A DNA stretch of 64,000 bases from a virus (IMGVR_UViG_2681813318_000003), one strand, 5' to 3'. Positions 1 through 58,404 are shown, counted from the stretch's first letter. The notes: a model not told the origin generated them from the sequence alone. A program made the numbers and translations.

Positions 1-167
1 CCTTCCAACCGAGTTGATGAACTCCTGCCATGGAACGTAGTACTCACCAATAAATAAGCGTCAATACGGTGCTCCGTTGACGCTTACAATCGAGATCGAG
101 TAATTTGGTCATTGGTTAAAATCCTTTTAAAAGAGAGGCCCATCCTGAGCCTCTGCTTAATTACTGA

Positions 168-9867: not shown

Positions 9868-9981
9868 AGATCCCTCTAAAACACACAGAGCGCGTCCATG
9901 CGCTCTAAAACAACTTGTTTACTGCATCTGCTAACCAACTTGTTTTCTGGGGTGTTTAATTAGGTCTGGCATGTCTTACGA

Positions 9982-20704: not shown

Positions 20705-20857
20705 CACAACTCCGTAAACAACTTGTTTTCTCAATGGCGTAAATAATACCAGTAAGAAAACGGCTACAAAGCATAATGATCAGGTGCATGATCGATATGC
20801 AGGTTCCTCCCTGCGGCTATAGAGAAATTAAGCCAGCATTGCTGGCTTTGGTTGGGG

Positions 20858-21198: not shown

Positions 21199-21236
21199 TA
21201 AACAACTTGTTTTCTCGTTGGTGTTATTATCGCAAT
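21199..21236 (-). promoter_or_regulatory. Class A promoter/leader motif (representative copy)
   Basis: Minus-strand reading TTGCGATAATAACACCAACGAGAAAACAAGTTGTTTAA: extended -10-like TGnGATAAT followed by palindrome AAACAAnTTGTTT 10-30 nt before the ATG. Related copies near 19045-19086, 19807-19827, 20714-20750, 24007-24075 (two), 31872-31892 (inverted), 34786-34820, 35501-35537, 36230-36268, 46450-46492 (two), 58371-58408. Confidence 0.5.
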
Positions 21237-23694: not shown

Positions 23695-23994
23695 TTACCA
23701 TTGCCAGCACTCTAGCCCTTCAACGACCGGTGCACCACAATCAAAATGTACAGAGTCAAAGCCTACATCAAGTACTTTCTGAATGTTCGCAATCGCGCCC
23801 TCGGATATACCATATCGACGCAACTCATCTTTCCAGTCATCGTCCTGTAACCCGGCGTGGACAATGCAACCGTACTCAATTTGTGAAACCCAATCCAGCT
23901 CATTGCTTGCGATCATGAATCGGCGAGCATCTTCCTCTGATGTATGAGATGAGCTGATCAATGCCACCTGGTAGGCTTGGGTAATGTTCAACAT
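23695..23994 (-). CDS. Hypothetical early protein
   Basis: ORF trimmed to ATG 23994 (MLNIT) with SD GGAGTGG; two class A motif copies upstream. Confidence 0.4.
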   Translation of the reverse strand: MLNITQAYQVALISSSHTSEEDARRFMIASNELDWVSQIEYGCIVHAGLQDDDWKDELRRYGISEGAIANIQKVLDVGFDSVHFDCGAPVVEGLECWQW

Positions 23995-24006
23995 TTCAAC
24001 CACTCC

Positions 24007-24075
24007 AAAACAAGTTGTTTTCTTATGTGGTTTATTATCTCCATCAACAAAAGGCAGAAAACAAATTGTTTTAGG
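24007..24075 (-). promoter_or_regulatory. Two tandem class A motif copies next to the host-like block
   Basis: AGAAAACAACTTGTTTTGG and AAAACAATTTGTTTTCTGCC on the minus strand, ending about 35 bp from the metG terminator. Confidence 0.45.
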
Positions 24076-24109
24076 TACTGTGTAAATCAGAAGGGATTGT
24101 GTCTATATG

Positions 24110-24136
24110 AAAATGCCCGGCGTGTTGCCGGGCATT
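24110..24136 (-). terminator. metG rho-independent terminator
   Basis: AATGCCCGGCAACACGCCGGGCATT hairpin followed by TTTCAT on the minus strand, about 20 nt after the metG stop. Confidence 0.6.
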
Positions 24137-24155
24137 GCGAAGAGAGGTTGTTTAA

Positions 24156-26189
24156 TTACTTAACCTGGTGGCCAGGTTTAGCACCAGCATCCGGGCTTAA
24201 CAGGAAGATATCTTTCCCGCCGGGGCCAGCAGCCATCACCATGCCTTCAGAGATACCGAAGCGCATTTTACGCGGAGCCAGGTTAGCCACCATAATTGTG
24301 TGACGACCAATCAGTGCCTGTGGGTCTGGATAAGCAGAACGGATGCCTGAGAAGACATTACGCTTTTCACCACCGAGATCCAGCGTCAGGCGCAGCAGCT
24401 TGTCAGAACCTTCAACAAACTCTGCGTTTTCAATCAGCGCCACGCGCAGGTCAACTTTAGCGAAGTCGTCAAAGGTGATGGTTTCCTGAATCGGGTCGTC
24501 TGCCAGTGGGCCAGTTACCGGTGCGGCTGTGGCTTTCACTTCTTCTTTGGATGCTTCCACCAGTGCTTCCACCTGTTTCATATCGATACGGTTATACAAT
24601 GCCTTGAACGGATTCACTTTATGGCCCAGCAGCGGTTGCTGGATACCATCCCAGGTCAGTTCTGTATTCAGGAATGCTTCTGCACGTTCAGTCAGTTTCG
24701 GCAGTACCGGTTTCAAGTACGTCATCAGCACGCGGAACAGGTTAATGCCCATAGAGCAAATCGCCTGCAGATCGGCATCGCGTCCTTCCTGCTTCGCCAC
24801 CACCCACGGAGCCTGTTCATCAACATAGCGGTTAGCCAGGTCAGCCAGTGCCATGATTTCACGGATAGCTTTACCAAATTCGCGGCTTTCCCATGCTTCG
24901 CCAATCACTTCAGCGGCATCAGTAAAGGTTTTGTACAGTTGCGGGTCAGCCAGTTCGCTTGCCAGCACGCCGTCAAAACGCTTGTTGATAAAGCCTGCAT
25001 TACGGGAGGCCAGGTTAACCACTTTGTTCACGATATCGGCATTCACGCGCTGAACGAAATCCTCCAGGTTGAGATCGATATCATCAATGCGCGAAGAGAG
25101 TTTCGCAGTGTAGTAGTAACGCAGGCTGTCGGCGTCAAAATGATTCAGCCAGGTGCTGGCTTTAATAAAGGTGCCGCGAGACTTGGACATCTTCGCGCCG
25201 TTCACCGTCACATAGCCGTGAACAAACAGGTTGGTCGGCTTGCGGAAGTTGCTGCCTTCCAGCATGGCAGGCCAGAACAGGCTGTGGAAGTAAACAATAT
25301 CTTTACCGATGAAGTGGTACAGCTCGGCGGTGGAGTCTTTCTTCCAGTATTCATCGAAGCTGGTGGTATCGCCGCGCTTGTCGCACAGATTCTTGAAGGA
25401 ACCCATGTAGCCAATCGGCGCGTCCAGCCAGACGTAGAAATATTTGCCCGGCGCGTTCGGAATTTCAAAACCGAAGTAAGGCGCATCGCGGGAGATATCC
25501 CACTGTTGCAGGCCGGATTCAAACCATTCCTGCATTTTGTTCGCCACCTGCTCCTGCAACGCGCCGCTGCGGGTCCATGCCTGCAACATTTCGCTGAAAG
25601 AAGGCAGATCAAAGAAGAAGTGTTCGGAATCACGCATTACCGGGGTAGCGCCAGAAACCACCGATTTCGGCTCGATCAATTCAGTCGGGCTATATGTTGC
25701 GCCGCAGACTTCACAGTTATCGCCGTATTGATCTGGCGCTTTACATTTCGGGCAGGTGCCTTTTACAAAACGATCCGGCAGGAACATGCCTTTTTCCGGG
25801 TCGTACAACTGAGAGATAGTGCGGTTTTTAATAAAACCGTTCTCTTTCAGGCGAGTATAGATAAGCTCAGACAACTGACGGTTCTCTTCGCTGTGCGTCG
25901 AGTGATAGTTGTCATAGCTGATGTTAAAGCCTGCGAAATCAGTCTGATGCTCATGACTCATTTCGCCAATCATCTGCTCCGGTGTGATACCAAGCTGCTG
26001 TGCTTTCAGCATGATCGGCGTACCGTGGGCATCGTCGGCACAGATGAAATTAACCTCGTGGCCGCGCATTCGCTGGTAACGAACCCAGACATCAGCCTGG
26101 ATGTGCTCCAGCATATGGCCGAGGTGGATTGAGCCGTTAGCGTACGGCAGCGCGCACGTCACCAGAATTTTCTTCGCGACTTGGGTCAT
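24156..26189 (-). CDS. metG: Methionine--tRNA ligase (host-type)
   Basis: 677-aa protein starting [31 protein letters not shown], class I HIGH motif, zinc knuckles CPKC/CEVC, KMSKS motif. Near-identical (a handful of substitutions) to Escherichia coli MetG as recalled from memory, not from a database search. The longer ORF to 26318 is an upstream read-through. Confidence 0.95.
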
Positions 26190-26346
26190 AGTAGGCATTA
26201 CTTCTTTGTAGTGAAAAGGGGCTTGATAGTAACAAAATGGCCTTATGTCTGCCATGTGATAACAGCATTTCTCATAAATGATTAAATGTCGTAGCTGGAG
26301 TACACTACAAGGCGACAATTGCGCAAATTAAAATAAAGGAGACGGG

Positions 26347-27447
26347 ATGAGCGAGTCCAAATCGCCGGATGCCCTGAGAGCAATGGTAGCCGGTACGCTG
26401 GCTAATTTTCAGCACCCAACCCTGAAACACAACCTGACTACGCTTAAAGCGTTACACCATGTTGCGTTGATGGATGACACACTGCATGTCGAACTAATCA
26501 TGCCTTTCGTGTGGAATAAGCCTTTTGAAGACCTGAAAGAGCAATGTAGTGGTGATCTGCTCCGTATCACTGGCGCAAAGGCTATTGACTGGAAGCTGTC
26601 GTACAACATTGCCACGCTTAAGCGCGTCAAAAACCAACCAGGCATTAATGGCGTTAAGAACATTATCGCCGTCAGCTCAGGCAAGGGCGGCGTGGGTAAA
26701 TCCTCCACGGCGGTAAACCTGGCACTGGCGTTGGCTGCTGAAGGTGCGAAAGTTGGTATTTTGGATGCCGATATCTATGGTCCATCAATTCCAACCATGC
26801 TGGGCGCGGAAAACCAACGTCCAACCTCACCTGACGGTACTCACATGGCACCTATCATGTCTCATGGCCTGGCAACCAACTCTATTGGTTATCTGGTCAC
26901 CGACGACAATGCAATGGTGTGGCGTGGACCGATGGCCAGCAAGGCGCTGATGCAGATGTTGCAGGAAACTCTATGGCCTGATCTGGACTATCTCGTTCTC
27001 GATATGCCGCCGGGCACTGGTGATATTCAGTTGACGCTGGCGCAGAACATTCCTGTAACTGGTGCGGTTGTGGTAACTACGCCGCAAGACATCGCGCTGA
27101 TCGATGCGAAGAAAGGCATTGTGATGTTCGAAAAAGTCGAAGTGCCGGTACTGGGTATCGTCGAAAACATGAGTGTGCATATTTGCAGTAACTGCGGTCA
27201 TCACGAGCCAATTTTTGGCACCGGTGGCGCACAGAAACTGGCCGAGAAATACAACACGCAGTTGTTAGGCCAAATGCCACTTCATATCTCTCTTCGTGAA
27301 GATCTGGATAACGGAACACCAACCGTTATTAGTCGTCCAGATAGCGAATTTACGGCTATTTATCGTGACCTCGCAGATCGCGTTGCTGCCCAAATGTATT
27401 GGCAAGGTGAAGTAATACCTGGCGAAATCGCATTCCGCGCAGTGTGA
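26347..27447 (+). CDS. apbC: Fe-S cluster carrier ATPase Mrp/ApbC (host-type)
   Basis: 366 aa, P-loop SGKGGVGKS, CxxC motif ICSNCGHHEP; divergent from metG with a 157-bp intergenic region as in the enterobacterial chromosome. Confidence 0.95.
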   Translation: MSESKSPDALRAMVAGTLANFQHPTLKHNLTTLKALHHVALMDDTLHVELIMPFVWNKPFEDLKEQCSGDLLRITGAKAIDWKLSYNIATLKRVKNQPGINGVKNIIAVSSGKGGVGKSSTAVNLALALAAEGAKVGILDADIYGPSIPTMLGAENQRPTSPDGTHMAPIMSHGLATNSIGYLVTDDNAMVWRGPMASKALMQMLQETLWPDLDYLVLDMPPGTGDIQLTLAQNIPVTGAVVVTTPQDIALIDAKKGIVMFEKVEVPVLGIVENMSVHICSNCGHHEPIFGTGGAQKLAEKYNTQLLGQMPLHISLREDLDNGTPTVISRPDSEFTAIYRDLADRVAAQMYWQGEVIPGEIAFRAV

Positions 27448-27452
27448 TAAAA

Positions 27453-27478
27453 AGGCGGTGCATTGCACCGCCTAATCA
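27453..27478. terminator. Bidirectional terminator shared by mrp and the UmuD'-like gene
   Basis: GGCGGTGCATTGCACCGCC hairpin flanked by AAAAA on the plus side (T-run on the minus strand). Confidence 0.55.
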
Positions 27479-27484
27479 GTTCTC

Positions 27485-27874
27485 CTACATCACGGGACAA
27501 TCATCAAACTCGCCACTTCTTGCGTCGTTGATAATGTGAGTGATCACACCAAACACGGCATTGCTGCCCGTGCATCCATCGTCATCCTTTGGCAATGCTT
27601 CCTTCTTACCGGTTCTTAAATCCTCCAGATGCTGACGTGGGTACTTCCGGTATCTTTTTACGCGATATTCCCCACCCAGAGCGCATACAAGCAGAGAACC
27701 ATCAACCGGGGTAAGTGAGGAATCGACCACCAGCAATGCACCCTGTAATATTCCCTCACGATGATGACTATCAGCTGCCCTCATGAAGTAGGTCGCTGAA
27801 GGATGTCTAATTATCTGCTGATCAAGAGAAATACGGCTCTCAGCATAATCCGCCGCAGGAGAAGGGAAGCCCAT
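27485..27874 (-). CDS. UmuD'-like peptidase S24 protein encoded in pre-processed form (HumD-like)
   Basis: Starts MGFPSPAADY, corresponding to UmuD residues just after the Cys24-Gly25 autocleavage site; HPSATYF motif; Ser (ADSH) and Lys (RVKRYRK) of the catalytic dyad present; in-frame TAA five codons upstream excludes a longer N-terminus. Confidence 0.8.
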   Translation of the reverse strand: MGFPSPAADYAESRISLDQQIIRHPSATYFMRAADSHHREGILQGALLVVDSSLTPVDGSLLVCALGGEYRVKRYRKYPRQHLEDLRTGKKEALPKDDDGCTGSNAVFGVITHIINDARSGEFDDCPVM

Positions 27875-27890
27875 AATACTCGCCTCTTAA

Positions 27891-27910
27891 TACTGTATAT
27901 ACATACAGTA
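27891..27910. promoter_or_regulatory. LexA (SOS) box
   Basis: TACTGTATATACATACAGTA, a CTGT-N8-ACAG match to the SOS-box consensus, 17 nt upstream of the UmuD'-like ATG and overlapping a TTCAAA-17-TATACT promoter on the minus strand. Confidence 0.75.
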
Positions 27911-27964: not shown

Positions 27965-28207
27965 ATGCTAACTATTGAAAGGCATAAATATATACAATTC
28001 CATCAAACGTTATTTTTAACAAATTTTTTCTCTCCGTTGACTTTTGCGAAAGCCTTGTCTGGCCTAAATTGCGCGGAAGATACTTTTTCCTTCCTGAGTT
28101 ATCCACAGAGTTATGCACTTGCATGCATAACCTATACACACTATCTTAATTCGCAAGACACTGATGTTGCGGTATTGAAGGTTCATTGGGTTAAAAATAG
28201 ACATTAA
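27965..28207 (+). CDS. Hypothetical small hydrophobic protein (low confidence)
   Basis: 80-aa ORF divergent from the SOS-controlled gene, followed immediately by a terminator; weak SD. Confidence 0.25.
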   Translation: MLTIERHKYIQFHQTLFLTNFFSPLTFAKALSGLNCAEDTFSFLSYPQSYALACITYTHYLNSQDTDVAVLKVHWVKNRH

Positions 28208-28236
28208 AAAGCCCAGTTGACTAGGCTGGGCTTTTT
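28206..28236. terminator. Bidirectional rho-independent terminator
   Basis: AAAAAGCCCAGTTGACTAGGCTGGGCTTTTT. Confidence 0.6.
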
Positions 28237-28271
28237 AAAAGGAAACAGAGTTTGCGCCTCTGTTCCTGAGC

Positions 28272-28572
28272 CATAAGTATCTGGCGACTGAGCTAAGATT
28301 AACCGAATGTACTGGATTCATCAAGAAACGTTGAGCCGTCATGCTAGGTAATAATGACCATTTACCAAACATCGTTGTTCTCAAAGAAGATTTAAGTCCA
28401 GGTTTTTGGTGACTCTAAAACCTTACCTTAACTCGAAATCGTGCCGTAAGTATCTGGCGACTACAGATATTGCAACTGCAAAGGCAAGCTCAAAGGTATT
28501 TGCAGCTAGGTGCGATAAAACTAAGTGAGGCCTATAGTGCTTAACTTACTTTTCAAAATCGTGCCGCCTATG
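28272..28572. repeat. Two tandem imperfect repeat units in a non-coding region
   Basis: Both units begin with TAAGTATCTGGCGACT (28276 and 28449) and end with AAATCGTGCCG (28437 and 28555); no ORF. Confidence 0.45.
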
Positions 28573-28630
28573 TTCGCAATCATCGAAGCGATCATTGAGT
28601 ACGTCAACCAGCGCCCATAATGCTAGTTGT

Positions 28631-28660
28631 TACCGGCCCCATCCAAATGGGGCCATTTTA
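28631..28660 (+). terminator. Rho-independent terminator
   Basis: CCGGCCCCATCCAAATGGGGCC followed by ATTTTATT. Confidence 0.55.
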
Positions 28661-28669
28661 TTGTATTGA

Positions 28670-29341
28670 CTACATACTTTCTGATCTAATTGAGTTGTTC
28701 ACTGCTCTGGCAATTTTCTCCCGCAATTGCTGCGTTCCGTGGTACTGAACCGCAATATCCCGCAACTCGTTCACCAGTTCTCTAATCTGGTGATCTTTAA
28801 GCTCATTATTTGGGTGATGGGTAACAACTCTGGTTAATTCACCCTTGTCTTTTGCCCTTACGTATGCAGCTCTTGTGCATTCGACCCATGTATTACCGCC
28901 TACATTAACTTCGTAGATTAGGCTAGACTTATCTGTCAATTCGGAACAAATACGGGCCGTGGTCTGGCAACTAGAGCATTCGCAGTTATCGCGGAAACCG
29001 TGGTCTACTGGCTTCGGTTTCACATCATCAACTTTTTCTACCCTATTGGAATTTAAATACTTCGAAGCCTTGCTATGCCAATCGCTGGTTTTAGGATCTT
29101 GTCCATCCATCAAACGCCAGGCTTCAGCGATTAACTCATAACTAGTGACTGTAGCTTCCTGCGCATCACCAATAAGTCGTGTAATCTCTCTTTCAAGCCG
29201 ACCGCCTAGCTCTGTTTTAGTGCAATGTTCTGACCAATCGCCAGCCTCAAGCAGCGCGAGAATGCTTAAAATATCGTCCAATAGATCAGTGGTATTATCG
29301 ACTTCCTTCTGAAGCTCACCGGCTACTGATTTATGCATCAT
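28670..29341 (-). CDS. Hypothetical protein
   Basis: 223-aa ORF, first of a run of small minus-strand accessory genes. Confidence 0.4.
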   Translation of the reverse strand: MMHKSVAGELQKEVDNTTDLLDDILSILALLEAGDWSEHCTKTELGGRLEREITRLIGDAQEATVTSYELIAEAWRLMDGQDPKTSDWHSKASKYLNSNRVEKVDDVKPKPVDHGFRDNCECSSCQTTARICSELTDKSSLIYEVNVGGNTWVECTRAAYVRAKDKGELTRVVTHHPNNELKDHQIRELVNELRDIAVQYHGTQQLREKIARAVNNSIRSESM

Positions 29342-29559
29342 TCGTCATCCTCATCCGAGTCATCCTCATCACAGAATGAAAGTAGTGGGTTAGTCATTCG
29401 CCCTACCTGAGTAGCGTAGCCACGCCGACAGAGATTGCGCAGCACACTGTATATTTCGAACATCTCGGTTCGTTCACCGCCAACATCAAGCTCAGATGCT
29501 ATAGCGTGACATTCAGTCGCGAGAGCCGATATTTTCTGAAATAACTCTGCTTTATTCAC
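29338..29559 (-). CDS. Hypothetical small acidic protein
   Basis: 73 aa with poly-acidic C-terminus DEDDSDEDDE; translationally coupled to neighbours. Confidence 0.35.
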   Translation of the reverse strand: MNKAELFQKISALATECHAIASELDVGGERTEMFEIYSVLRNLCRRGYATQVGRMTNPLLSFCDEDDSDEDDE

Positions 29560-30256
29560 TCTGCGACTCCTGCGGAGGTTCTGGTAGCGGCATCCAATGG
29601 GTTACGTTGCTAATCAGTCCATATTCATTAGTTTGAGGATGGCCGCCGCGATCGTCTCCGTATTTAAAACTTTCCATAAAACCATAATGCTTACCCCCAT
29701 TAACGCTCACAAAGCCGTAATAAGCTGGTATAACGCCGATCTCACACGTAATCAGCAAAGGAAAACCAGTTCTCCAATTTAGCTCGCCGATTACAGGCAT
29801 TCGCTCACTACAGCTTATCCAGCTATCCTTAATGCCACTATCTTGACTCTGAAGCATGGCGGCACGACAGGCGTTCCAGCCTCTCACCTCTGCAATAGCG
29901 GCAACAGCATCGACCGCGTACATTTTAAGAGGGTTAGGCATTGGTTTTTCTTCAGGTACTACTGGAATGGGTGGGGCGGCGTAGACCTCAATAATTCCAT
30001 TATCAATAGGCCATTCTCCATCCTTGAGGTAGTCACTTGTGCCGTCAACTTGCTGTTCTGCAATGTGGAATGCACCTATTGGTTTTGCCTCAAGCGAGGC
30101 CAGTGCAATTCGTGCCAGTTCTAGATCTCGTTCAACCATCTCAAGAACAACTTTGCAGTCCGCACCTTCTTTGCTAACACGTCCTTTCAAGTTTTCCAGA
30201 TAACTAACGCTTTCGCGTGCATGGGAGATTAACTGTTCTTTGGTAAAGGTGGTCAT
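29552..30256 (-). CDS. DUF551-like phage protein (tentative)
   Basis: C-terminal GDDRGGHPQTNEYGLISNVTHWMPLPEPP resembles the conserved C-terminal motif of DUF551 proteins common in enterobacterial prophages. Confidence 0.35.
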   Translation of the reverse strand: MTTFTKEQLISHARESVSYLENLKGRVSKEGADCKVVLEMVERDLELARIALASLEAKPIGAFHIAEQQVDGTSDYLKDGEWPIDNGIIEVYAAPPIPVVPEEKPMPNPLKMYAVDAVAAIAEVRGWNACRAAMLQSQDSGIKDSWISCSERMPVIGELNWRTGFPLLITCEIGVIPAYYGFVSVNGGKHYGFMESFKYGDDRGGHPQTNEYGLISNVTHWMPLPEPPQESQSE

Positions 30257-30444
30257 TAGGCAGCTCTCTCAACAACAAGCAATTCGTCGTAGTCATAATC
30301 AGTTTCGGAGCCATCCGTACCGAACAGAGTCACTTTGTCACCGTCCATCCAGAAAGATTTAACCGCACATTGTTGACCTTTAGATGTTATGACCACATCA
30401 CCAGGTATTACGTCCTCAGCGCGAACTTCTATAGTTCTCATCAT
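30256..30444 (-). CDS. Hypothetical small protein
   Basis: ORF 30256..30570 trimmed to the internal ATG (MMRTIEV) that abuts the upstream stop. Confidence 0.3.
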
Positions 30445-30764
30445 GCTGATCCCTCTTTCTCTCCCCGGATAATTCTGTTGCACACATCCACGCACTCGTC
30501 GCAGATAAAAACGGCGTCCCCAGCAATTAACTTTTTGACGGCGTGCTGGGATTTGTTGCAGAAGCTGCAATAAAGCGTTCGCCTAACGGATACGGATGGT
30601 GCGCCAGATGTCAGCCGCGCCATATCGTTCTTGCGGCGCAACATCACACGGCTGAACTCAACCAGTTTCTCTGGGGATATCTCCTCCTCCGTAGCTAGCG
30701 TCTCTAGTCGTTCGAGTATGTGGAAGGCTTTTTCCTGGGTAATTGCAGAATGCGATGTGGTCAT
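30441..30764 (-). CDS. Small protein with ClpX-type C4 zinc-binding domain
   Basis: [36 protein letters not shown] closely parallels the ClpX N-terminal zinc-binding domain ([36 protein letters not shown]); no AAA+ module follows. Confidence 0.55.
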
Positions 30765-31106
30765 CTTCTTTCACCTTAATTTTCGACACGATCATGATTT
30801 AGCCAAAATCCACCATCCCGAAATGAGTGCATAATCTGACCAACATGAGTGAACAATCCCGTTCTCCTGTTGCTGATTCTTGTCCATTGCAAGACTCGAG
30901 GGTCGTTTCTACGAACTAATAGAATCTTTGCTTTACGGTTTTTCATCGTTTTGCTCTCCTGCGTTTCTTTGCTGCACGCCGAGCCGCCGCGATACCAGTA
31001 CGACGCTTTGATGCAGGAATACCGGTTCCATCAGAAAAGACATGCGACTTTATGAGTGATGTTGACGCCCAAAGGCGAATTGGGTGTGGAAGCAAGCCGA
31101 AGAACA

Positions 31107-31352
31107 CTATCTGCATTTCACACCACCATTTGTATTCGGTGAGCTATTTACTTCTTTCGCGTTAGCTTTGCGCTTAACTTCTCGAACGGTATAAGAAAGG
31201 TCATTAAGCATGATGACCGACGCCATAATATTGCAATGCAGTTGCTCTTCGACACGGTTAAGCATTATTCGCAAATCCGGGTGTTCCGCTTCAAATCTTG
31301 CACGCTCAATCTGCCATAAGTTGGCGGCTTCTAACGTTTTATTGGTTGCCAT
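31107..31352 (-). CDS. Hypothetical small protein
   Basis: 81-aa ORF with ATG at 31352. Confidence 0.3.
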   Translation of the reverse strand: MATNKTLEAANLWQIERARFEAEHPDLRIMLNRVEEQLHCNIMASVIMLNDLSYTVREVKRKANAKEVNSSPNTNGGVKCR

Positions 31353-31353
31353 A

Positions 31354-31803
31354 TCAAACTCCTTTGCGAAGCTCAGCGGCGAAGGCTACTGCGTGATCAT
31401 GATGTTCAAGTGTGTATGCATACTCCGCAAACATCTCCACGCCCTGCGCACGTACTTCAGCCAGAAAAGCATCGGTGGCTGGAGTCTCCGTCAATTCGCT
31501 AACCCAATTATCTCCGTGTTCCTCGGCACACATCGCATCGAATGCTCGCTCAGATTCTTTCAGGGCTGCATTCTCCGCCGCTAATGCGTCTCTTTGCGCC
31601 CGCAACTTCTCAATTTCGGCAGCCATGTAGTAACCAACCATAGCGAAGACGGCAAAAGAGTTGTCTGCCTCATCAGGCGACACTGAGGCCATTAGCAGGC
31701 CATCGTAAAAATCGTGACTCCCATTGGTGATCGCCACCGCATAGGAGTCGTGGTTCTCGCGCTTGTGAATGAGAACTACGGGATTTTCGATTTTGTTACT
31801 CAT
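31354..31803 (-). CDS. Hypothetical protein
   Basis: 149-aa ORF; conserved start context AGAGAAAAACACATG; inverted class A motif about 70 nt upstream. Confidence 0.4.
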   Translation of the reverse strand: MSNKIENPVVLIHKRENHDSYAVAITNGSHDFYDGLLMASVSPDEADNSFAVFAMVGYYMAAEIEKLRAQRDALAAENAALKESERAFDAMCAEEHGDNWVSELTETPATDAFLAEVRAQGVEMFAEYAYTLEHHDHAVAFAAELRKGV

Positions 31804-31941
31804 GTGTTTTTCTCTTCTTTGCTGTTACATAAGCACTACCAAGTGCTGGTTTATTTTCACAAATAAGAAAATGTAGAAAACAATTTATTTAAGGCCATAA
31901 GTTATGGCCTTTATTTATTCATGCAGAAGGATTTGTAGCGC

Positions 31942-32322
31942 CTAATTGCCGGATAAAATGGGTTGAGGTGCTTGCCAGTAAGCTCCACCGTCCCATGTGA
32001 ACCCCATGCGAATAAGAGTGTTTATTGCGGCTTTGGTAGACTCTGATTCGACGCTGACTTTTCGAAACTCTTGAACCTCTTTCGCCAACTTGTATGTAAT
32101 TGTGCAGGGGACGATTGCAGCCCAGCCTTTCTCATGACTGTTAATGACCATCTGGATGTGACCATCCAGAATAGGTTGATTAGGCATGTTATTGAAAACG
32201 TCTGCCTGTTTTTGAATGTGAAGAAAAAGCCTTGCCAGCGCCATTTGCTCACTACGAGACAAGGGATTATCAAGAGGACTTTTTGCAAAAGCTGCTATAC
32301 GCTGTGCATCAATGCCAAACAT
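31942..32322 (-). CDS. Hypothetical protein
   Basis: 126-aa ORF, start coupled to the stop of the upstream gene. Confidence 0.35.
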   Translation of the reverse strand: MFGIDAQRIAAFAKSPLDNPLSRSEQMALARLFLHIQKQADVFNNMPNQPILDGHIQMVINSHEKGWAAIVPCTITYKLAKEVQEFRKVSVESESTKAAINTLIRMGFTWDGGAYWQAPQPILSGN

Positions 32323-33026
32323 CAGCGCACCTCACCATCTTTATGGCTGGAGTTAACTTCCGCCATTAAATGTCTGACGTAATCGACAAGAGAGCCATCT
32401 GGTGGAATCTGGCATTCCTCAACTAACTGGAAGTAGATATCCGCTGCATTACGTGTATTACTACCCGCGCATATTCTTTCTTCCCGAAGTGCATGAAGCT
32501 CGTTGATCAAACGGTCACACTCTCCGTTACGCTGATCCACAACGGCCTCAAGCTCTGCGACGCGTTCACCTGGCGTCTTACCTTCTTTGCGTTGGATGGT
32601 AACGACGAAATCGCCAATTGCAGGGACGTTGTAATCCAGCTCAAGGTAGTTTTTGGCACCGCTGCGGACGAACTCACCCGCGAACATGGTGGCGAACATC
32701 GCAGAGGCCACTTCGCCGTTGAAAAGTGACTCCAGATCTAACGGAGTCCCGGCAGCAAGAGCCTCTTTTGCTGTATCCATTGCATCCATGAACCGATCAA
32801 ACTCACTAGCGCGCTTTTCCAGGTCTTTCCATTGCTCGCTCCAACGTTTGGCAACGAAGTCTATGAATGTTTTCGCGGATTCATCAAAATCCCCCTCAAA
32901 CTTAACGATGCCTTTATCAATAATGATCTGGCCTACCGCATCCTCTGCATAACCTTTCAATGTAAACTTGAAAGGAAAATCAGAATGGCCTGTGACGTTA
33001 AAATGCTCTAACTGGAGGTTGTTCAT
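32322..33026 (-). CDS. Hypothetical protein
   Basis: 234-aa ORF; start context GAGAAAAACACATG. Confidence 0.4.
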   Translation of the reverse strand: MNNLQLEHFNVTGHSDFPFKFTLKGYAEDAVGQIIIDKGIVKFEGDFDESAKTFIDFVAKRWSEQWKDLEKRASEFDRFMDAMDTAKEALAAGTPLDLESLFNGEVASAMFATMFAGEFVRSGAKNYLELDYNVPAIGDFVVTIQRKEGKTPGERVAELEAVVDQRNGECDRLINELHALREERICAGSNTRNAADIYFQLVEECQIPPDGSLVDYVRHLMAEVNSSHKDGEVR

Positions 33027-35484: not shown

Positions 35485-35781
35485 GTGTTTTCCTTAATGC
35501 TTAAACAAGTTGTTTTCTAATTGGATTTATTGTGATGTGGCATAAAAGGGGAGCAAGCTAAACGTAAAGGTGCAAACTCTCTATTTCGGTCAACGAAACA
35601 CAAGGGCCATTTGGCCCTTGTCATTAACACGTTGCTTTACGGACTAGCGGATAAGCGAAGTAGATCGCCAGGCCAATGAGGACGCCATCAGAAATGACAG
35701 ACATCATCTTTCCCGTAAAATCCACCAACACCGCCATCACCAGAAGAGCAATGACGGTCACAAGCCGGAATCTCTCAAGCA

Positions 35782-58356: not shown

Positions 58357-58404
58357 GTTTTCTTATCCTTTTAAACAAATTGTTTTCTTAATAAGATAAT
58401 TGCG

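Follow-up and report, generated by a model that had tools for sequence, protein, structure and literature searches.

A metG-apbC module carried as cargo by a probable SSU5-supergroup phage-plasmid of Escherichia and Shigella

We analyzed a 64,000-nt stretch of the virus IMGVR_UViG_2681813318_000003, given as one strand with coordinates counted from its first letter and referred to here as the window. It carries metG, the gene for methionyl-tRNA synthetase (MetRS), and divergent from it apbC (mrp), the gene for an iron-sulfur (Fe-S) cluster carrier. This host locus has been captured by the element and forms a stable cargo module in it. The window is very probably part of an SSU5-supergroup phage-plasmid from a metG-bearing Escherichia/Shigella clade. 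Comparison with chromosomal alleles further suggests an old capture from a non-Escherichia enterobacterium and a metG that is probably a recombining mosaic of Escherichia-type alleles. According to PMC12452169, a phage-plasmid-borne metG has already been described in pWPMR2 (Tam et al. 2024), so the basic picture is published and our additions are incremental: the limits of the module, alternative cargo of its slot including der, selection on both genes, a deeply diverged apbC without a donor, and the recombinant metG. Because a transmissible second MetRS in enteric pathogens has been linked in the literature to antibiotic survival and to resistance-evolving lineages, recognition of the module is useful for surveillance.

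Limits and anatomy of the module

The module and its immediate flanks comprise the following features.

23695-24003, minus strand: DUF5983-family gene, 102 aa, backbone, left flank (ORF list; Pfam PF19419, E 8e-13)
24008-24020 and 24059-24071, no strand: AAACAAnTTGTTT, an operator-like palindrome, present twice where the leftward backbone operon has its promoter region (inverted repeat)
24073-27484, no strand: the whole cargo module, consisting of left hairpin, metG, divergent promoter region, apbC and right hairpin (junction alignments with pTB212)
24112-24136, minus strand: terminator-like hairpin 3' of metG (perfect inverted repeat, 100% complementary)
24156-26189, minus strand: metG, methionyl-tRNA synthetase of 677 aa, complete in all its domains (alignment, Pfam)
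26190-26346, no strand: divergent intergenic region with putative promoters (alignments; promoters assigned by sequence conservation)
26347-27447, plus strand: apbC (mrp), Fe-S cluster carrier P-loop NTPase, 366 aa (alignment, Pfam)
27453-27473, no strand: hairpin between the convergent apbC and humD (terminator scan, minus strand, 9 pairs)
27485-27874, minus strand: humD, UmuD'-like S24 peptidase, 129 aa, backbone, right flank (Pfam, nucleotide match)
27893-27908, no strand: LexA box CTGTATATACATACAG, CTGT-N8-ACAG (sequence), overlapping the humD promoter-like site
27935-27907, minus strand: humD promoter-like site

The limits were taken from plasmid pTB212 (NZ_CP033252.1), whose backbone homology to the window ends after the second palindrome (~24072) and resumes exactly at the humD stop codon (27485). 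This alignment places the cargo at about 24073-27484 with a hairpin included at each end, within a few bases of the interval 24076-27480 proposed in an earlier reading of the DNA alone (the sequence-only reading). That reading had also described metG and mrp/apbC as divergent in the manner of the Escherichia chromosome, as we find (24156-26189, minus; 26347-27447, plus), and had placed an SOS-box UmuD'-like gene just past mrp, where humD lies with its end 37 bp past the apbC stop and its LexA box at 27893-27908. A motif that it called class A, which we take to be AAACAAnTTGTTT, was said to lie near the metG terminator; the last copy on the left ends at 24071, ~40 bp before the hairpin. The DUF5983 gene heads a leftward phage-plasmid operon beside the cargo and is kept in pTB212, which is without metG-apbC. 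The G+C content of the block is 0.50-0.51 versus about 0.43-0.47 in the flanks.

The hairpins are not those of the chromosome. Homology between the module and K-12 ends at the stop codons of metG and apbC, the downstream sequences are unrelated, and the module hairpins were shared by none of the 12 enterobacterial chromosomes aligned on the metG side and none of the 16 aligned on the apbC side, so the earlier suggestion of terminators as in the Escherichia chromosome does not hold. The metG-side hairpin has a perfect G+C-rich stem of 10 bp (24112-24121 / 24127-24136) and a 5-nt loop, with TTTTC coming next on the minus strand; so short a T-run kept this hairpin off the list of the consensus terminator scan. 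The right hairpin has its T-run on the minus strand and is therefore best read as the humD terminator, acting on apbC weakly at most. It was absent from K-12 and from pTB212 in our alignments. Its stem stays paired in the copies from E. fergusonii and ST131 through a compensatory C>T/G>A change, which argues that the structure matters.

Between the genes, a putative extended -10 element of metG (TGTTACTAT, minus strand, hexamer 26226-26231) was conserved in the aligned enterobacterial chromosomes, and ~50 bases upstream of metG were conserved between the module and K-12. The central intergenic region was Citrobacter/Salmonella-like, not Escherichia-like, and unrelated to K-12 in the alignments. 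The palindrome AAACAAnTTGTTT lies outside the module; the window has 15 copies of it versus 0.55 expected, a count reached by 0 of 100 shuffles. Its sites include 9908-9920, 20716-20728, 21200-21212, 24008-24020, 24059-24071, 35503-35515 and 58373-58385, and the pair beside the block closely precedes the start of a gene that reads leftward. The palindrome looks like the operator of a phage-plasmid repressor.

A repeat search found no direct or inverted repeats pairing the two junctions, and the ORF list and Pfam gave no mobility genes between 23695 and 27874. Capture as a transposon, insertion sequence (IS) or integron cassette was considered and rejected, with no terminal repeats or recombinase at the module ends.

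Encoded proteins

MetG. The predicted protein was identical to K-12 MetG at 668 of 677 residues (98.7%) and matched PF09334 over 1-390 of 391 positions (E 8e-166), PF19303, and PF01588 at residues 581-674. The alignment contained the HLGH and KMSKS motifs and the zinc knuckle CPKC...CEVC. With its catalytic, anticodon-binding and C-terminal tRNA-binding/dimerisation domains, MetG is a class I MetRS of the E. coli dimeric type, and its 98.7% identity to the K-12 enzyme together with a dN/dS of about 0.02 leads us to infer that it is active in aminoacylation. Eight of the nine differences from K-12 were ordinary Escherichia polymorphisms, the exception being Q79H, which was private to the window allele.

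ApbC. Identity to K-12 ApbC was 346 of 365 residues (95%), with a different N-terminus that is three residues shorter. The protein had a full NUBPL-type P-loop NTPase domain (PF10609, 2-245 of 246 positions, E 2e-102), the deviant Walker A motif GKGGVGKS and, in the alignment, the CxxC motif CSNCGH, which identify it as an ApbC/Mrp protein (NBP35-type). The impression that both proteins are almost identical to their E. coli versions thus stood for MetG at the protein level; ApbC was at 95%, and the DNA was at 94% for metG and 82% for apbC.

Distribution of the module

We searched PLSDB with a 5.6-kb query containing both junctions and with the 3.4-kb block. The full 5.6 kb was present in 107 plasmids at 97-99% identity, and the block in 202, about 196 of them at 94.8-99.4%. 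Nearly all matching records were non-mobilizable (203/208), and those examined were circles of ~100-125 kb assigned to rep_cluster_488 or IncFIB. The carriers were E. coli, Shigella, E. albertii, E. fergusonii, and E. marmotae. Four phage records also contained the block (Cyrano, two CMS-2020a, and PhiR41_1); relatives had been deposited as phages, one with E. coli K-12 MG1655 as the listed host. The module occupied the slot between the DUF5983 gene and humD in nearly all clade members, and only two records, pTB212 and NZ_CP104619.1, had both flanks joined without it. Capture of an essential host locus, one of the options left by the sequence-only reading, was borne out by this recurrence in 107 (5.6 kb) and 202 (block) plasmids and four phages. 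The accompanying picture of an Escherichia locus with native terminators was not, as apbC and the intergenic region are not of Escherichia type and the hairpins are not chromosomal.

Among 5426 complete E. coli genomes, all of which matched the block, there were 224 plasmid places and 5429 chromosomal places. No genome thus appears to lack the chromosomal metG, and the element seems to bring in an additional copy instead of substituting for an essential gene. The block was ~90% identical to the E. coli chromosomal loci. It resembles the K-12 metG-apbC locus in the divergent pair, the protein architectures, and the ~50 bases upstream of metG, and differs in that the chromosomal neighbors, a DUF4132 gene and yehE, are absent from the module and both downstream terminators are unrelated.

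Housekeeping genes of chromosomal type that lie within phage DNA and have a higher G+C content than their surroundings may at first look like an assembly chimera or a piece of chromosome beside an integrated element, but identical junctions in about 200 closed circular plasmids and four phage records, only about 90% identity of the block to any E. coli chromosome, and flanks that differ from the chromosomal DUF4132 gene and yehE leave this explanation with a negligible probability. Since both junctions are common to independent complete circular plasmids, a chimeric contig, which the sequence-only reading had allowed for, is excluded. The window was also collinear with ~110-kb SSU5-type phage-plasmids across the compared parts, which make up nearly all of it, and this collinearity with the identical junctions in many closed replicons makes integration with rearrangement very improbable. 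Both flanks matched SSU5-type phage-plasmids and were not the ordinary chromosomal surroundings of metG, in line with their earlier assignment to mobile-element DNA.

Identity of the element

Two large segments of the window matched phages CMS-2020a, Cyrano, and PhiR41_1 at 94-98% identity over 88-98% of their length. Members of the clade include pLF82, the ST131 plasmid pB20 (111,741 bp, the published size of pECOH89), and S. sonnei plasmids of the pWPMR2 kind; Cyrano and pLF82 are both 108,379 bp and are probably one element. In pLF82/Cyrano, pB20, and PhiR41_1 the backbone was 94-98% identical to the window and the metG-apbC-humD arrangement 96-98% identical, with small changes in neighboring accessory genes. 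SSU5, pHCM2, and the Klebsiella SSU5-like phage-plasmids have the structural and replication backbone in common with the window (77-81% nt) and are without the metG-apbC module. By gene class, the 77-81% identity of the backbone to Salmonella phage SSU5 and the Klebsiella SSU5-like elements covered structural, replication, and nucleotide-metabolism genes, with SSU5 itself at 78-81%. About 19.8-32.4 kb of the window, the block included, was not shared with SSU5 or the Klebsiella relatives; by this comparison the stretch is a variable accessory region.

A P1-type phage-plasmid was rejected as the source, because within the 5.6 kb P1, P7, D6, and SJ46 matched humD only (~400 bp at 84-87%). The nucleotide identity of humD to P1 humD was ~85%.

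Alternative cargo of the slot

In pTB212 a 744-bp DUF4145 gene with its own hairpin (locus L003, 4745-5488) fills the slot bounded by the DUF5983 gene and humD. The slot of NZ_CP104619.1 looks like that of pTB212. Such replacement between conserved flanks shows the slot to be a cargo-exchange point.

A further gene was seen at this place in three phage-plasmids, two from E. marmotae and one from E. coli (L084, 1578-4870; L090, 390-1862, NZ_CP072690.1). There, der (EngA), which encodes a ribosome-biogenesis GTPase, directly follows apbC at the usual place of humD. The phage-plasmid der was ~91.5% identical to E. coli chromosomal der; with it, the slot holds another essential host gene with a role in translation.

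Origins, selection, and recombination

Evolutionary statistics were computed for six Escherichia chromosomal alleles and eight phage-plasmid copies taken from alignments, a small sample. The eight copies were those of the window, CP099286, and plasmids of E. marmotae, E. fergusonii, E. albertii, S. sonnei, ST131, and a hen isolate.

The two genes differed in their distance from the chromosome. DNA identity of metG was 94.0% to K-12, 92.8-94.8% to other Escherichia, and about 87% to Citrobacter; for apbC the corresponding values were 82.2%, 81.8-83.2%, and 79.4-82.5%. Synonymous divergence (dS) from Escherichia was 0.25-0.39 for metG and about 1.3-1.6 for apbC. The metG distance equals that between Escherichia species (K-12 vs others, 93-95% identity and dS 0.25-0.34). 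K-12 apbC differs from that of other Escherichia by only 7-11%, which puts the phage-plasmid apbC at about the distance of another genus. In a donor scan with one genome per species, no chromosomal ApbC above 95% identity was found among the best 80 of 484 relatives, the best being 95%. No ApbC protein cluster between 95% and 100% was found in 5.8 billion sequences, a search that discriminates poorly because phage-plasmid and E. coli ApbC fall together at 90% clustering.

Selection. Compared with six Escherichia chromosomes, metG had dN/dS values of 0.010-0.023; apbC, compared with 16 chromosomes, had values of 0.013-0.031. Both genes are thus functional and constrained. Among the eight copies metG had 247 segregating sites and 10 variable residues, and apbC 70 and one. 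The strict conservation of ApbC within the lineage means that it is no mere passenger, and on these substitution counts it is evidently kept by selection. We considered that the genes might be neutral hitch-hikers, a decaying fragment of host DNA without function, as the slot is variable and takes other cargo (the DUF4145 gene in pTB212, der in three plasmids). This is very improbable given reading frames intact in all eight copies, dN/dS of about 0.02, a single amino-acid change for 70 segregating sites in apbC, the compensatory change that keeps the right-hand hairpin, and the presence of the module in nearly all clade members.

Recombination. Mean pairwise divergence among the eight copies was 4.6% for metG, with alleles differing by up to 7%, and 2.1% for apbC. 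The minimum number of recombination events (Hudson-Kaplan) was 45 in metG and four in apbC. Of the segregating sites, 171 in metG (34 expected) and 50 in apbC (14 expected) were also polymorphic in the six chromosomal alleles; at third codon positions only, the numbers were 158 (82 expected) and 49 (34 expected). The majority phage-plasmid base was absent from the six chromosomes at 24 sites in metG and 102 in apbC, of which three and 85, respectively, were fixed in all eight copies. Tracts of metG identical to one chromosomal allele reached 237-257 nt, and the longest run between chromosomes was 176 nt.

These patterns suggest the following history, which we consider probable. The capture would be old, with apbC and the intergenic region coming from an enterobacterial lineage about as far from Escherichia as Citrobacter. 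Thereafter metG would have been overwritten patchwise and repeatedly by recombination with the chromosomal metG of Escherichia hosts, so that it now looks host-type and varies between copies. It would have been similar enough to exchange patches, whereas apbC stayed a separate lineage because it was too diverged to recombine. A recombining mosaic would also explain the reported variability of phage-plasmid metG. Three points weigh against this history: some of the polymorphism that metG shares with the chromosomes could have arisen in parallel at two-fold degenerate sites, apbC too has some excess at third positions (49 vs 34), and the identical tracts of 237-257 nt are only modestly above the chromosomal background of up to 176 nt.

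Relation to pWPMR2 and proposed function

As relayed in PMC12452169, Tam et al. 2024 (medRxiv 10.1101/2024.10.27.24316207) reported that resistance-evolving S. sonnei lineages carry a variable extra phage-plasmid metG, and that metG expression gives rise to a subpopulation predisposed to third-generation cephalosporin resistance. A UK survey placed pWPMR2 in the SSU5 supergroup, with a large share of S. sonnei carrying it and further occurrences in E. coli CC131, CC23, and CC73 (bioRxiv 10.1101/2025.09.12.675607). Literature queries on SSU5 with metG, or on P1-like elements with methionyl-tRNA synthetase, gave no match. The element in the window is very likely of the pWPMR2 kind. Like pWPMR2 it is an SSU5-supergroup phage-plasmid with an extra, variable metG, found in S. 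sonnei and E. coli, and over the 5.6 kb that comprise the block with its two junctions a 110,949-bp S. sonnei plasmid matched the window at 97.1% identity. The secondary descriptions of pWPMR2 consulted do not mention apbC, discordant gene origins, or alternative cargo of the slot.

The module is self-contained: metG and apbC diverge as on the chromosome, with a promoter region of their own between them and a hairpin on either side. Cells with the element therefore have a second intact copy of each gene, presumably expressed from these promoters independently of the phage-plasmid circuits. Following the published description of phage-plasmid metG, the likeliest function is that the extra wild-type-like MetRS would shift the aminoacylation balance and so produce an antibiotic-surviving subpopulation, a mechanism for which we regard the chances as about even. 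Nearly all substitutions in MetG are of the ordinary Escherichia type, and an effect is therefore likelier to come from dosage than from an altered enzyme.

A mobile element that supplies a second copy of an essential aminoacyl-tRNA synthetase has a parallel in mupA/ileS2 (mupirocin), a plasmid-borne second synthetase that is divergent and inhibitor-insensitive. The module MetRS, by contrast, has 98.7% identity to the host enzyme and differs from it by ordinary Escherichia polymorphisms, which again favors dosage over an altered target. Weighing against the reading as a whole, both the dosage mechanism and the phenotype are inferred, dosage of MetRS leaves the retention of apbC without explanation, and the link to pWPMR2 is drawn from the 97.1% identical S. 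sonnei plasmid and secondary descriptions.

The module might instead mainly serve the phage, with MetRS and the Fe-S carrier supporting translation and cofactors during lytic replication and the antibiotic effect arising as a by-product. The element does carry genes of self-sufficiency (NrdA/NrdB, ThyX, a DnaE-like polymerase, ligase, primase, glutaredoxin, and a tRNA cluster), and metG and apbC are both under strong purifying selection within the phage-plasmid lineage. However, the chromosomal-type promoters and the bracketing hairpins, with the palindromes lying outside the module, suggest expression in the plasmid state rather than the lytic one. SSU5 and the Klebsiella and Salmonella relatives are without the module, which is thus not needed for the phage cycle. 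Nor did the tRNA cluster of the close relative CP099286.1 contain tRNA-Met in the first 50 kb, the part searched, so there is no obvious pairing of tRNA and MetRS in that stretch. We consider a phage role rather unlikely. The cluster itself (L091, 21676-22222) comprised Ser-TGA, Thr-TGT, Tyr-GTA, and Asn-GTT.

More speculatively, the phage-plasmid metG may act as a recombination shuttle with the chromosomal metG of the host, generating MetRS diversity on which selection for antibiotic survival could act. The effect might then depend on the deeply diverged, strictly conserved ApbC and, in many copies, on an AtaT-like toxin, making the module part of a translation-initiation/dormancy circuit and more than a simple additional gene copy. 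We give this extension a low probability.

Less probable still is that the module stabilizes the plasmid or protects the host, by tolerating loss of or damage to chromosomal metG or by buffering a toxin or inhibitor that acts on Met-tRNA, such as an AtaT-like GNAT toxin. A DUF1778 and GNAT toxin-antitoxin pair is present on CP099286.1 (L091, 34190-34988) and on 143 similar plasmids, and the GNAT toxin aligned to PDB 6GTS and 6AJM over 172 residues (269 bits, E 1.4e-79) with about 70% identity counted from the printed alignment. We take these structures to be AtaT, which presumably acetylates Met-tRNAfMet. A functional link between the GNAT toxin and the extra MetRS is possible, but the pair lies outside the window and was found in 143 PLSDB plasmids versus 202 with the block. 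All 5426 E. coli genomes match the block, with 5429 chromosomal places, and none appears to depend on a plasmid copy, and the MetG substitutions, of natural Escherichia type plus the private Q79H, give no pointer to inhibitor resistance.

Other features of the window

Left edge. Window positions 1-87 matched, at 100% identity, the end of a mobile element that Stx2-converting and lambdoid phages carry as an annotated feature, and backbone homology begins at base 88-90, which suggests an IS insertion at the left edge of the window.

Right of humD. The ~700 bp to the right of humD (27965-28650) contained no convincing ORF, only one of 80 aa at 27965-28207, and a bidirectional-looking hairpin lies at 28210-28227. 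No Rfam families or tRNA genes were found in the window, and 27965-28650 had no Rfam match. The phage records diverge right of humD, two of the four ceasing to match at 27875. Farther right, window positions 28600-32400 held short patches 90-98% identical to lambdoid/P22-like phages (ea/Eaa-type, DUF550, DUF551) and to D6, which indicates probable mosaic exchange of the right-hand variable region with unrelated temperate phages.

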